Source: Candidatus Poseidoniaceae archaeon (GTDB lineage: Archaea; Thermoplasmatota; Poseidoniia; Poseidoniales; Poseidoniaceae). From it: a stretch of DNA of 37,034 nucleotides. Where the stretch lies: the NCBI GenBank assembly GCA_028822955.1, contig JAPKCL010000001.1:1-37034 (forward strand). The letters run 5' to 3'. The notes beneath the pieces were generated by a model that was not told the origin of the DNA, did not search any database, and was given only the letters and a program-made list of their open reading frames with translations. Position numbers and translations under genes: made by a program. Of this stretch, positions 1 to 28,533 are shown one piece after another; the first letter of the stretch is position 1, and the number at the start of each line of letters is the position of its first letter.

Positions 1-31
1 AAAGGACATTCGTGAGTTATTGTTTACGAAT

Positions 32-3000
32 TCATTCGTTCGCCATTTCGCCTTCATGGGTCTGCGTGAGGTAGGTCACGAGCCCGAGTAAGGCTGCAGA
101 TGCAATTAATATGGCGAGTAATATTTCAACTGAGGCTCCTTGAACGATGACAATTCCTGCAATAATCCAACTCAGTACGAGGTCAAGAGCGCCGACGACT
201 CTCCAGGCTTTACGTAGCGTAAGAACCCCACTTACCCATGAAACCGTTGAACATAACAGGATGAACAGCACTGCGAACAAGAGGTTTGAATATCCAAATG
301 CTGAACCAATCAAGAGAATGTGCATTGCCCACAATGCTGCAGGAAGCCAAAGGCCTTGCCGTTGTTGGACAACCCATGCCGCGAAAAGAATGCTGACCAA
401 TCCGAGGCATGAAGCGATGAATCCGAGTGAGGGGAGCGCGATAATGTCTGAAAGCCATGCACTACTCGCCAAATATGCCATCGGTAACATCAGCCAGGCG
501 GCAAGAACAACTGCAGGTTGAGTCCACCAAACACCGCGGCGAGCCGACTGTATGATGGCTGCAAATGTTGCAGGACCAAAGGAGAGGAGCGCGACAAATA
601 ACAGCCATGCAGAACGGCCACCGGCCCCTCTGTGGTCACTCATATCGTGTTGGATACGTTTGCCTTCAACCCAATCAAATCCGAAGACTGCTGCGAGAAG
701 AAGAGCCTCAATAATGATCAGAGGGGCTGTCCAAGAGAGGGTTGAGAGGGTTGTAACAAATGGGTCAATATCGAACGGGATTGGAACTTCGCCTCCAATG
801 ACGACGCACAAGACTCGGTCTATGGCTGCAAGATAGATGACGCCCTCGAGAGCATTGGGGATTCTGAGTCCCAAATCATTTCGGCCAAGAAGTCCGATTC
901 CAGCTAACATCACAAGCCCTCCAAAGAAAACAAGCAGATGGGTTGCATCTCCGAGTACAACAACCGAATTTGAAGCCCGGCCTGCGACGTGAACCAAAAC
1001 AAGGCCCAACATGCCAAGAGCTATTGGAGCCTCTATTCCCATGATATCAGGCAACCTCAACCCAATTTGATTTGCACGGATTCGCGAAAGGCCGACAAAT
1101 AAGATCGAGATCATTACGCTGAATGAAAGAGCAAGGAGGGTGTTTCCAGAAACGAATGAAAGATATGAAGTTGCAAGAATCGTCGTTGAGAGGAAAAGAA
1201 GAACAATTGTTGGTTGATGGTGAATATCTCCAACATAGAGATCCATATCTCCTGAAGAACCTGAACGGCGTTGGCGTTTTCTCTGTTTTTCTACCAATGT
1301 TAACAATTCTGTATCGATTAGGCGTAGGTTGCTTGTTGGGGTCGAAGTGGTTTCTTCACCCTCTTGGGTGCCACCAAGTTGTAGAACTTCAGAATCTTCC
1401 ATCCCCGAGGATTCAAGGAATGTTTGGATACGTTCTTGTTTATCTTTTAGCCGCTGTATTCGGTTCTCCTTCTTGGTAAGTGCTCGTATACCTGAGCGGA
1501 ACTCACCCTGAACGGCAAGATATGCTCCCGAACCTACGAACGCTATAATTGAAGCCAAAACAACAACTTCAACCGCAATTGAACGTCCGGCTAAAGCCAT
1601 TGAAATGATCAGGGCCACTGCGGTCACAGCAGGCGGTAAAAGTTTCTCCAATGTGGCTGCTCGCAAAAGATACAACACCAATGCCACCAGTCCAATGAGC
1701 ATCAAAACCAAGAGGTTCGTTTCCTTGTCAAGCATATGCTCTGTACCGGTTAAAGGAACGGTTGTAAGGGGGTCCAAAGCAATCATAATGAAAAAAGCCG
1801 TAAGGAAACCCATCATCATCGTCAACAATTGTCCAGGAAGAGTTTCGAAGCGTTCGAGTTCGCTTTCTGTTGCACCTCCGGCGCGTCTGCGATCAGAGGA
1901 TTTCAACAAAATGGCCGAAGAAATCACCAAAGATAAGGCCCAAAACGAAGATTGACCATACGTCCATGAAAGTAAAAGAGCAAAAATACCCCAGAATGAC
2001 ATCAATGTTTGAGGTTTTCCAAGATGTCGTTCAAAGTACACCATCAGTGAATGGCCGATAAGCAAACTGCCGAGAATAATCACTACTCCATACATCGGTA
2101 ATGCGTTTGGGCGAACGATAGCCCAAGTGACGACGACGGAGAAAAGGAAACTCAAGTTCCATAACTTTGCTAAGCCTGAATCTCGAAGCCTTGCCCCGAC
2201 TTCAGAAAGTCCAACCAGTCGTGCTGCGAGGTTTAATCCAACTTCTCCATGGCGGAGATTGACCCAAATTTGCTGCACGACCAGCAGGCTCATCCACAGG
2301 AATAAATCAAATTCGTTTATTGAAATTGGAATGAAATCAGCAGAGATGAGGCGCGCATCAGCATCGGTTGCAAACAACAGGAGCCAAACCCAAGGACCCA
2401 AAACGGCCGTTCCTGCGATAGAAGGTGAAGACCGGTAAACTGCTAATCCAGAAAGGCCAATCCAAACGACTCCTTGGGTAACCAAAAGAATACGGGAGCC
2501 GTTGTTTGAATCTCCTGACGGAATGAGAAGGGTGAGTAAAAGAACGATTGCGAGGCCTCCAAGCCAGAGCACATGGTCGGAGACTGCAGTTTGATTTCGC
2601 AAAAGGGCTACGGCGGTGAACATGGCTGTAAAAACGGCATACAAACTGTACCCGTCCAAGTTCCACGGCAAGGTAATGCCAAGCACGCCCGAAGTATACA
2701 GCGAGAGGCCAATCAGAAGGAACGGTGCTGGGAAGATGATGTAAGGGGCTAATTTCCTCACATCTATGCCTCGAACTACAAGATATGACCCGCTGAATGC
2801 AGAGATGAGAAGCATCAGTTGTGCAAGCGCATAACCTGTTTCCAATCGGTGTGCTGTTATCGCCAATAACGCACCAATCATTCCAAGGCTTACAGAAACT
2901 GACCAAAGTGCAGGTTTACCAAGGCCCATTGCTTCAAATGCTTTGGAAAACCAATTGTCAGCCTGAACAAATTTAGCAGCAATAATAGCATTGGTTGCCG

Positions 3001-24957: not shown

Positions 24958-26358
24958 ATGGCCGATGTTCGTATCGAAGCCGACACCATGGGTGAACTTG
25001 AAGTTCCTGCTGACAAGTATTATGGGTGCCAAACCGCCCGTTCTCTGATTAATTTCGACATTGGAGACGATACAATGCCTGTAGGCGTTATTCGTGCTTT
25101 TGGAATCCTCAAACAAGCTGCTGCAAAAACAAATGTTGCTCTAAAACAACTCGACCCCGTTGTTGGCGACCTCATTATTGCTGCATCACAAGAGGTTTTA
25201 GATAATTGTCTCGATGAACATTTTCCACTTCGCGTTTGGCAAACTGGAAGTGGAACACAGTCCAATATGAATTCAAATGAAGTCATTGCAAATCGGGCCA
25301 TTGAACTGGCTGGAGGCGTAATGGGCTCCAAAACACCCGTCCATCCTAACGATCATGTCAATCGGGCACAATCTTCGAACGACACGTTTCCAACCGCAAT
25401 GCATATTTCTGCGGCAGAGGCAATTACACACAACTTACTGCCAAGTGTTCGCGCTCTACGCAATGCATTAGCAGCAAAAGCCGATGCCTGGAAAGACATC
25501 GTCAAAATTGGCCGTACCCATTTGATGGATGCTGTGCCGCTCACACTTGGTCAAGAAGCATCGGGATGGGTTGCTCAACTCGATGCTGACCTGCGACGAA
25601 TTGATTTTGCTCTCGATGATTTATTCGAATTAGCACTTGGCGGAACTGCTGTCGGCACTGGCCTCAATACGCATCCATTATTTGCTCAAATGGTAGCAGA
25701 TGAAATCGCTAATATTACCGGGTTATCGTTCTGCTCGGCTGAAAATAAATTCGCTCAACTTGCTGCACATGATGCGGTAGTGGCTGCTTCAGGCGCTCTC
25801 AATACCCTTGCAGTTTCTTTAATGAAAATTGCAAATGATGTGCGATGGTTGGGCTCTGGCCCCCGATGTGGTTTTGGTGAGTTATCGCTGCCAGCCAACG
25901 AACCTGGCTCTTCAATCATGCCTGGTAAGGTCAATCCAACCCAAGCAGAAGCATTGACCATGGTGTGTTGCCAAGTGATGGGCAATAACGTAGCGATTAC
26001 CGTTGGAGGCAGCCAAGGTAATTTCGAATTGAACGTCTTCAAACCGATGATGATTCATAATCTCCTCCACTCAATTCGATTACTCACTGATTCATGCACT
26101 GCGTTTAGGACAAAATGCGTAGAAGGTTTGGAACCTGTCGAGGAGAACATTGCAGCACATCTTGAGAATTCATTGATGTTAGTCACTGCACTCAACAATC
26201 ATATCGGCTATGACAAAGCCGCAAAGATTGCAAAGAACGCTCATGAAAAGGGATTGACCTTGAGAGCGTCTGCTCTTGAATTAGAATACTTAACGAATGA
26301 AGAATTTGATGCTTGGGTCCGCCCCGAAGAAATGACTGGGCCACGTACGCCTGAATGA
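24958..26358 (+). CDS. fumC: Fumarate hydratase, class II
   Basis: Fumarate lyase signature [13 protein letters not shown], plus [12 protein letters not shown] and [10 protein letters not shown]. 466 aa. Confidence 0.95.
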
Positions 26359-26365
26359 GTCTCAG

Positions 26366-26641
26366 TTAACGAGAGCCTTCGACAAAGATGAAATTAACAA
26401 AGACTTGGAAAGCAAGAAACCAGCCCACTATCATCACAAAGATTGCTAAACCACCCGGTTCATTACCCGTAATCATGTCGTGTGCGATGATGAGGGCTGC
26501 CAATCCGAGTAAGAAAAAAACTCTGTAAATGATTTGAGTTAAAATTCGAGCCTTTGCTGACATTGTTCGCCATCCAGCGAATCCGAACCAACGTGCGACA
26601 AAACTTGCCTCTTGCTCTTTGTTTGTAAGACCTTGATCCAT
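26366..26641 (-). CDS. Small two-TM membrane protein (91 aa)
   Basis: The ATG at 26641 lies 2 nt after the stop of the RHH ORF. Two hydrophobic segments: VFFLLGLAALIIA and LAIFVMIVGWFLAFQVFVNFIF. Confidence 0.6.
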   Translation of the reverse strand: MDQGLTNKEQEASFVARWFGFAGWRTMSAKARILTQIIYRVFFLLGLAALIIAHDMITGNEPGGLAIFVMIVGWFLAFQVFVNFIFVEGSR

Positions 26642-26643
26642 AT

Positions 26644-26787
26644 TTATTCGCCTCGCTGTTCTATGATTGCTTTTCTGAGAAGAAACTCAATCTGGCCATT
26701 CACTGAACGCATGTCAGTCTCAGCCATGCGCCTTAACACCTCATGGAGTTCGGGGTCAATTCGCAGCAGTACCTTCTTTTTCGTCAC
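26644..26787 (-). CDS. Ribbon-helix-helix (Arc/MetJ-like) DNA-binding protein, 47 aa, not in the supplied ORF track
   Basis: Manual translation of the minus strand gives MTKKKVLLRIDPELHEVLRRMAETDMRSVNGQIEFLLRKAIIEQRGE. The GTG start at 26787 has AAGGGGTGA 6 nt upstream, and an in-frame TGA lies 3 codons upstream. A beta-strand (KVLLRI) is followed by two helices, with the RSVNxxI motif typical of Arc-family RHH proteins. Confidence 0.7.
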   Translation of the reverse strand: MTKKKVLLRIDPELHEVLRRMAETDMRSVNGQIEFLLRKAIIEQRGE

Positions 26788-26805
26788 AATCTTTCACCCC
26801 TTTCA

Positions 26806-27027
26806 TCAAAGAAAGATCTTAATTAATCCACTACCGATTTGAAAGATTCCCAGAACTACCATTATTATTTGAGTAAAATAATACGACTTAGTGGCATCTT
26901 CCTTTGACATCCAACCCTTGCCGCTCACATATACCCCTCCACGGGTAAAATTGTAAGCAGCGTAGCCAAACAAAAGCAGGGCTATCAGGAAACTGGGTAG
27001 AGACCAAAGAATGAGGTCTGTGTTCAT
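26806..27027 (-). CDS. Small two-TM membrane protein (73 aa)
   Basis: The ATG lies 9 nt downstream of the SPFH gene stop. Two hydrophobic segments: LPSFLIALLLFGYAAY and IIMVVLGIFQIGSGLI. Confidence 0.6.
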   Translation of the reverse strand: MNTDLILWSLPSFLIALLLFGYAAYNFTRGGVYVSGKGWMSKEDATKSYYFTQIIMVVLGIFQIGSGLIKIFL

Positions 27028-27036
27028 AAAAGCGCC

Positions 27037-27990
27037 TCACTGATACAAGGTGCCCGCGTTGACAATCGGCGTCGTATCTGTCTCTGAACAGAGTACAACG
27101 AGTAGGTTACTGACCATCGAGGCTTTTTTGTCTTCATCCAATACGATGATGTTCTTCGCACTGAGTTGCTCAAGGGCAAGTTCGACCATGCCAACTGCTC
27201 CTTTGACAATCTCTGTGCGTGCTGCAACAACTGCGCTTGCTTGCTGGCGACGAAGCATAGCCTGTGCGATCTCTTGGGAGTAAGCAAGGTGGCTAATACG
27301 TGCTTCAAGAACTTGAATTCCTGCTCGCTTTAGACGGGCTTCGATTGAAAGTTGTAGCTCTTGGGCAATCAGTTCTTGATGGCTCGAAAGTGCGATACCT
27401 CCCACATCCTTGTCTTCGATAATATCGTAAGGATATTTCGTTGCCATAGCGCGCAATGCTGCTTCACTTTGAATTTGGACATAATCACGGTAGTTGTCGA
27501 CTTCAAACAATGCTTCAGCGGTATCGACAACTTTCCAGACGACGACTGCGCCGATTTCAATTGGGTTTGCATTGACATCGTTAACCTTGAGTTTTGTAGA
27601 TTCAAAGTTGCGGATTCGAAGAGATATCTTCTGCTTTTCAAACAGCGGATTGAGGAGGTAATGGAAACCTTCATCGTCGACGGTTCCGGCATATTTGCCG
27701 AAAAATTGCAGTGCGACTCCTTCGTTAGGATTGACGATGAGATAACTGTTGAACATCATGAACCAAGCAAGACCGATGGTGATTTGAAGAAGAATTCCAA
27801 GGGCGAATCCGAATCCCCCGAACGCATAGAGGATGAAGGTGGCGAAGAAAAGAAGTGGCACTCCTAAGATGTGAATGCCGAGGCCGGCAAAACCGCTGAT
27901 GGTGGTTTTTTCTACATCCTTGAACATGATTTCATCCAATCTTGGCTCGGCAATTTTTTGTGATGGCGTTGCTTGCATGACTCTCTCCAT
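27037..27990 (-). CDS. SPFH/band-7 (stomatin/prohibitin-like) domain membrane protein
   Basis: N-terminal double hydrophobic region followed by an SPFH-like core ([46 protein letters not shown]). The C-terminal part is A/Q-rich and helical ([19 protein letters not shown]). Confidence 0.8.
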
Positions 27991-28071
27991 TCAATGCTAT
28001 CATAGTGATATCATAAAGATATCGTATAAATGAGGCCGTTCTGTTTAATATCTCGGCTGGGTGGACAATTT
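27991..28071. promoter_or_regulatory. Divergent AT-rich promoter region with clustered palindromes
   Basis: CTATCATAG (27997-28005), TGATATCA (28006-28013), GATATC (28018-28023), TATAAA-like GTATAAA (28024-28030), AATATC (28047-28052) and GGTGG (SD for the + gene, about 28060-28065). Confidence 0.4.
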
Positions 28072-28533
28072 ATGGCAAACAAGCCCGTTTTAATCGTTGG
28101 TGGAATCTGTATCGTACTCGCAATTGCATCTTTTGGTATTGCGGGGTCAAGTTGGTCAGATGCCACAGATGAGTTTGAAAACAGTGATGATATGGAGGCG
28201 TTCACAATAGGCCCAGATAACTCGTTTACCTACACATATACTGATGAAAATGGATTGGGTTCTAGTGGATTCCTAGGTACGCTTGGAGCCTGTTGCTGCG
28301 GACTCAGGGGCATCTTACTTCTCGTTGGGGCCTTGACTGGTGGAGCACCGAAACCTATGGTTGTGTACATACCGCAACAAGGAATGCAACAGCAAGGCAT
28401 GATGCCGCAACAACAAATGGGACAAATGCCAGTTCAACAGCCACAATATGCTGTCGGGACTGATATCGATTCCAGTAGTGTGGCGGATACCCCGGTCACT
28501 GTAGATGATTCAACATCGAGTGTCTGGGACTAA
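28072..28533 (+). CDS. Membrane protein with Q/M-rich low-complexity tail
   Basis: MANKPVLIVGGICIVLAIASFGIAG N-terminal anchor, a second TM (GILLLVGALTGG), then QQGMQQQGMMPQQQMGQMPVQQPQ. The ORF extends to an ATG at 28030, but the ATG at 28072 has a GGTGG SD, so I prefer it. Confidence 0.55.
   Translation: MANKPVLIVGGICIVLAIASFGIAGSSWSDATDEFENSDDMEAFTIGPDNSFTYTYTDENGLGSSGFLGTLGACCCGLRGILLLVGALTGGAPKPMVVYIPQQGMQQQGMMPQQQMGQMPVQQPQYAVGTDIDSSSVADTPVTVDDSTSSVWD

Follow-up and report, generated by a model that had tools for sequence, protein, structure and literature searches.

The minus strand of the window (the whole stretch of 37,034 nucleotides of Candidatus Poseidoniaceae DNA that was analysed) contains a 47-codon gene for a minimal ribbon-helix-helix (RHH) protein of the Arc/CopG type, predicted to bind DNA, and this gene is the conserved partner of an SPFH membrane-scaffold gene across Bacteria and Poseidoniales, which makes it more than a passenger in its operon. 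In many bacterial phyla, no fewer than 14, the SPFH gene, the RHH gene, and a candidate operator form a self-contained cassette. Our comparisons of sequences point to a cassette that probably represses itself, with the RHH protein as autorepressor, and that came to Poseidoniales by one transfer from bacteria. Little is understood, to our knowledge, of what SPFH scaffolds do in prokaryotes; a dedicated candidate repressor with a near-invariant, genome-unique operator offers a direct experimental handle on them and a simple means of searching for this SPFH subfamily. We found no description of the SPFH–RHH pairing or of its operator in the literature searched, which was the full text of a limited collection. 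The mechanism class, an RHH autorepressor, is ordinary; the RHH family and its tie to SPFH appear uncharacterised.

A conserved gene of 47 codons

The original prediction had placed an unlisted 47-residue reading frame on this strand, and our translation of it, MTKKKVLLRIDPELHEVLRRMAETDMRSVNGQIEFLLRKAIIEQRGE, was identical to the one reported then. Its GTG start, Shine-Dalgarno (SD) motif, in-frame upstream stop, and the 2 nt separating its TAA from the next ATG were all found where they had been described (Table 1), with the upstream TGA sitting within the SD-like motif. When 40 related genomes were searched in six frames, the RHH frame turned up in 15 of the 24 other genomes of the same genus and in none of the 16 that belong to other families of the order. 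Across 16 sequences, it was the sole frame of the six that was open in every relative, and within a 38-codon core of these sequences, the third codon position varied in 37 of 38 codons as against 9 of 38 for the second position. Nei-Gojobori proportions for the same core averaged 0.835 for pS, which is saturated, and 0.170 for pN. The position of the start is conserved among relatives while the codon used is ATG, GTG, or TTG depending on the genome, and motifs of the GGAGG/GGTGA type lie 5 to 10 nt upstream of it. We conclude that the 47-codon frame is a genuine, strongly conserved gene under purifying selection, and the check on conservation that had been proposed with the prediction came out in its favor, with the frame kept at the syntenic position in relatives.

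The same DNA also encodes a 76-aa frame on the plus strand (26612..26842), which is indeed present as first noted. Because this ORF is longer and appears in the supplied ORF list, it could be the real gene and the RHH frame a chance one. However, its antisense frame is interrupted by stops in 5 of the 16 relatives and has no Pfam match, whereas the minus-strand frame stays open in all of them, is under strong purifying selection, and is matched by RHH profiles. We give the chance-frame explanation practically no credence and rejected the 76-aa ORF as an antisense shadow of the RHH gene.

Table 1. Features of the RHH gene, its neighbors, and the candidate operator, in window coordinates
Feature	Position	Strand	Remarks
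SPFH/Band_7 membrane-scaffold gene	27037..27990	−	first gene of the predicted operon
TM73 gene	26806..27027	−	73-aa two-TM protein; between SPFH and RHH genes
RHH gene	26644..26787	−	47 aa; GTG start, TAA stop
GTG start codon, RHH gene	26787..26785	−	
In-frame TGA	26796..26794	−	2 codons 5' of the RHH GTG; caps the ORF
SD-like AAGGGGTGA	26802..26794	−	last base 6 nt before the RHH GTG
TAA stop, RHH gene	26646..26644	−	followed by 2 nt (AT), then the TM91 ATG at 26641
TM91 gene	26366..26641	−	91-aa membrane protein; 2 nt after the RHH stop; last gene, lineage-specific
Candidate RHH operator	27995..28024	−	three TGATATCA-like 8-mers at exact 11-bp spacing
Operator site 1	28024..28017	−	cGATATCt
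Operator site 2	28013..28006	−	TGATATCA
Operator site 3	28002..27995	−	TGATAGCA
Putative TATA-box-like element	28011..28017	−	TTTATGA; between and overlapping sites 1 and 2
Predicted RHH elements (residues)	strand 4-10, helix A 12-24, turn 25-28, helix B 29-45		

The exact 47-aa protein was absent from a collection of 15 billion proteins in which the TM91 and SPFH proteins of the same contig were present, and we infer from this that the RHH gene is uncalled in this assembly. The gene was therefore unlisted in a sense that goes beyond the 60-aa threshold of the ORF track, and a regulator gene is missing from the protein set of this genome. The accompanying expectation that annotation pipelines could easily miss such a gene holds for this assembly but not in general: many homologues are called elsewhere, those with 79 to 91% identity under the names "HicB family antitoxin" or "ParD family antitoxin." These names are misleading for the RHH protein, and they wrongly make orphan HicB/ParD antitoxins of the called homologues. 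For TM73, the only records of the exact protein come from JGI/ENA/Logan contigs no longer than 9.6 kb, and none from this 37-kb contig; TM73 may likewise be uncalled in this assembly, or called with a different start.

The arrangement of the genes suggests that SPFH, TM73, RHH, and TM91 are co-transcribed in this order, with RHH as the third gene; 9 nt separate SPFH from TM73 and 18 nt separate TM73 from RHH. The order SPFH–TM73–RHH was kept in every locus with enough flank, followed in the window's own clade by TM91 and then by the convergent fumC gene, which ends at 26358 in the window. TM73 is specific to this Poseidoniaceae lineage, and neither TM73 nor TM91 matched a Pfam or NCBIfam family. 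A sister subclade has, in the place of TM91, an unrelated membrane protein of 125 to 128 aa whose gene overlaps the RHH stop. This protein has C-terminal TM helices and no Pfam family (L007 1122..1499(−), L013 1640..2026(+)), and a convergent gene for a secreted protein of ∼315 aa follows it in place of fumC. Other genomes of marine group II have no gene between SPFH and RHH.

An SPFH gene accompanied by genes for small membrane proteins recalls the SPFH–NfeD operons (Escherichia coli QmcA–YbbJ and Pyrococcus horikoshii PH1511–PH1510). Unlike those operons, TM73 and TM91 have no NfeD-family match, and the conserved partner of the window's SPFH subfamily is a predicted DNA-binding protein. The SPFH protein itself had no match among PDB sequences at E ≤ 0.001. 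Translation of SPFH probably begins with the second ATG (MQATPSQ...), at 27978 and not at 27990; relatives begin with MQAAP, MQPAP, or MQAMP at the equivalent position, with an SD-like GGAGAG/GTGAG motif just upstream. A search of 26300..28150 for RNA families gave only a subthreshold snoRNA-like match (E = 0.55), and we rejected an RNA element on that basis; a defense system was likewise rejected, there being no PADLOC match for five neighboring proteins.

Fold and family of the RHH protein

An RHH profile search had been proposed with the original prediction, and two Pfam families passed their curated cut-offs with the single protein: ParD_like (27.6 bits against a cut-off of 23, over profile positions 4-34 of 73 only) and HicB (22 bits against 21). 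RHH_7, RHH_5, Arc, and FitA-like scored under their own cut-offs, Arc reaching 15.5 bits against 20.4. Among 84 members of the family, RHH_5 matched 77, ParD_like 57, HicB 49, and Arc 24, the last count being taken at E ≤ 0.01. A profile search of PDB sequences aligned the AE..RSVNxxI stretch of the protein with the same motif in P22 Arc. The family signature is LLR(I/L)DP...RS(V/L/I)N(G/A)QIEF, read as LLRIDP...RSVNGQIEF in the window protein; each of its columns is either invariant or kept in 90% or more of the 84 sequences, and R9, R27, S28, N30, I33, E34, and L37 are invariant throughout the family.

AlphaFold, given the 84-sequence alignment, returned a monomer-only prediction (pLDDT 94.5, pTM 0.71) that is extended over residues 1-11 and continues into the helix, turn, and helix delimited in Table 1. 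This run superseded one on a shallow alignment of 27 close sequences, which had given one long helix and no helix-turn-helix. The RHH domain takes up all 47 residues of the model, and bacterial relatives, at 50 to 70 aa, consist of the RHH core and a variable tail that is charged or proline-rich. The top Foldseek matches were all RHH proteins: Arc, the Rv0298 antitoxin, CopA_SO, CopG, and AmrZ; with so short a chain, their E-values were weak, at best 0.02. The Arc-type fold that had been read from the sequence agrees with this strand-helix-turn-helix model, for which Arc and CopG are the best structural matches.

P22 Arc (PF03869) is of the same size class (53 aa compared with 47) and has the same strand-helix-helix topology and an identical RSVNxxI motif at the turn and helix B; the structural match to it had a TM score of 0.77 to 0.80, an rmsd of 1 to 2 Å, and 26 to 30% identity. 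By alignment to Arc, K5, L7, and R9 would face the DNA, and V6, L8, and I10 would lie in the core. In contrast to Arc, the RHH gene is chromosomal and tied to an SPFH gene rather than part of a phage switch, and few of the family members (24/84) reach the Arc profile. CopG of pMV158, with 45 aa, is a bare RHH domain as the window protein is (TM 0.78 to 0.85), and the "CopG-like" RHH_5 is the family matched by most members. The two differ in what their operons encode, a membrane scaffold in the window and a replication initiator for CopG, and in distribution: CopG stays within a plasmid family, whereas the SPFH–RHH pair is kept across 14 bacterial phyla and Poseidoniales.

The SPFH partner and a candidate operator

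We scanned 185,579 species genomes with a pattern search and found RHH relatives encoded at no fewer than 594 loci. The best 80 of at least 594 were examined, and these came from Poseidoniales and many bacterial phyla. At 78 of these best 80 loci, an SPFH orthologue with 43 to 88% identity to the window's SPFH lies directly upstream on the same strand, in 14 bacterial phyla as well as in Poseidoniales, and the gap between the two genes at the best loci is usually −4 to +100 nt. No third conserved gene was found in the bacterial cassettes. In some Acidobacteriota (L049, L056, L057, L105), the cassette has a third gene specific to the lineage, which encodes a two-TM DUF3592 protein of ∼265 aa and overlaps or closely follows the RHH gene (−26 to −4 nt).

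The promoter region put forward in the original prediction (27991-28071) contains a conserved triple operator-like site. The minus strand upstream of SPFH reads cGATATCtttaTGATATCActaTGATAGCAttgaATGgagagagtcATG. Shuffling of the window gave 0.06 chance occurrences of the triple-site pattern, and the site is unique in the 1.79-Mb assembly. It was present in all 17 module-bearing Poseidoniaceae loci, amid spacers that are otherwise unconserved, and in none of the 4 SPFH-only loci, which have no RHH gene. Exact TGATATCA occurred 75 times in the 80 loci when 3.1 occurrences were expected; it was found at the SPFH 5' end in 65 of the 72 evaluable loci, with a one-mismatch version in 5 more. When whole bacterial genomes of 3.8 to 8.3 Mb were searched, a double site with up to 2 mismatches lay at the SPFH locus in 7 of 8; the 8 genomes together had a single extra double-site match, and the reversed control gave none.

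The logo of 58 bacterial loci reads TTGAC-N9-gATAtCaa.gTGATATCAt.t.GatatCA, and the sites would therefore cover the −35/−10 spacer, the −10-like TATCAT, and the start region. Conservation of the bacterial operator could partly reflect the −10 element that it overlaps. In the window's clade, the conserved TTTATGA resembles the TATA box of an archaeal promoter, placed about 25 nt 5' of 27990, near which SPFH transcription would begin. A sister Poseidoniaceae subclade has its TATA-like element, ATTATAAT, after site 3 and not between sites 1 and 2, so the repression geometry in archaea would not be uniform. On the opposite strand, a divergent gene for a Q/M-rich membrane protein (28030..28533(+)) probably starts at 28072 (MANKPVL) and not at 28030. 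Relatives share a conserved "ttgtttgccat" at this start, and a conserved TATA-like TTTAATAT at 28044..28051, about 21 to 28 nt upstream of it, has a spacing that suggests a leaderless or near-leaderless mRNA.

The profile matches raise the question of whether the RHH protein could be a type II antitoxin, ParD-like or HicB-like, with the small membrane protein TM91 as its toxin. Its best Pfam families are ParD_like and HicB, its homologues carry antitoxin names at NCBI, and a small hydrophobic protein encoded 2 nt after the RHH gene is a layout typical of antitoxin–toxin pairs. Type II antitoxins (ParD, HicB-type, FitA, CopA_SO, Rv0298) have this DNA-binding fold in common with it, and RHH domains from such antitoxins appear among its Foldseek matches. 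However, the neighbors SPFH, TM73, and TM91 matched no toxin family when compared with Pfam, NCBIfam, and PADLOC; TM91 is swapped for an unrelated protein in the sister subclade; and the bacterial cassettes have no conserved gene downstream of RHH. The 47-aa protein is a bare RHH domain that lacks both a toxin-binding, neutralizing C-terminal extension and the HicB N-terminal domain. The conserved partner is SPFH, upstream in 78/80 loci, and the candidate operator precedes SPFH and not the RHH gene. With no toxin partner, no neutralizing region, no conserved downstream gene, and an operator before SPFH, the antitoxin reading fails, and we consider it very unlikely.

Proposed autorepression and bacterial origin

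We propose that the RHH protein acts as an autorepressor of the SPFH cassette. RHH dimers would bind cooperatively to the three TGATATCA-like 8-mers, which are one helical turn (11 bp) apart; the bound sites would overlap both the TATA-like element and the stretch immediately 5' of the presumed SPFH transcription start, and the protein would in this way silence its own operon in a negative autoregulation. In bacteria, it is the −35/−10 spacer, the −10 box, and the transcription start that the same sites would cover. In Poseidoniales, the cassette would have kept the repressor and operator and gained lineage-specific genes for small membrane proteins. Arc and CopG both offer parallels. The Arc operator consists of subsites one helical turn apart, as does the candidate SPFH operator, except that the SPFH promoter has three sites and not two, centered on the perfect palindrome TGATATCA. 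CopG autorepresses copG–repB with several dimers that bind cooperatively across the promoter; the sequence and layout of its operator differ from those of the SPFH cassette.

The same conserved sites could be bound by an RHH protein that is an activator, or a dual regulator responding to a signal, instead of a simple autorepressor. In the one Poseidoniaceae subclade with the displaced element, the three sites lie just 5' of the TATA-like ATTATAAT, which is compatible with archaeal activation, and some RHH proteins both activate and repress, including AmrZ, which is among the fold matches. However, the geometry at the 58 bacterial loci, with sites over the −35/−10 spacer, −10 box, and start region, is one of classical occlusion, and so is that of the window's clade, where the sites overlap the TATA-like element. 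We regard activation or dual regulation as unlikely and favor repression.

A further and more speculative possibility, to which we attach little weight, is that the RHH protein goes beyond a homeostatic autorepressor and is the output of a portable sensor of membrane state. The SPFH scaffold, or small membrane proteins whose translation is coupled to that of RHH, would then titrate the repressor off the DNA upon membrane perturbation, in a parallel to PspA–PspF partner switching. If true, such a circuit could explain why the protein and operator are nearly frozen across 14 bacterial phyla and why they would function after a move to the archaeal transcription machinery.

The cassette itself appears to have come from bacteria. 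In a tree of 92 SPFH rows (IQ-TREE quick search), all Poseidoniales sequences formed one clade with an SH-aLRT of 100, nested in Gemmatimonadota with L097 as sister (support 97) and a support of 92 for the wider group. One Poseidoniales clade nested in this way indicates a single transfer of the cassette from a Gemmatimonadota-like bacterium, and the intermixing of bacterial phyla in the tree suggests that the cassette has often been transferred. The Poseidoniales copy would make a clean example of a bacterial repressor–operator pair kept after transfer to an archaeon, with the archaeal copy on a putative TATA-type promoter and the bacterial copies on a putative sigma-70 promoter.

RHH gene and operator may occur together because the whole cassette descended as a unit, and about two independent co-losses bear on this co-occurrence. 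Three SPFH-only genomes of the same genus group in a single subclade (SH-aLRT 99) that falls among module-bearing genomes, and G030 is a second, separate case; RHH and operator were therefore lost together at least twice. The solitary SPFH genes, without RHH gene and operator, lie in another genomic context (L026 in G001, L027 in G007, L030 in G014, and L036 in G030). At one further locus (L012/L037, G004:C7), the SPFH matches come in two pieces, residues 5-233 and 248-317, ∼400 nt apart, which could reflect either an insertion that interrupts SPFH or an artefact of the assembly.
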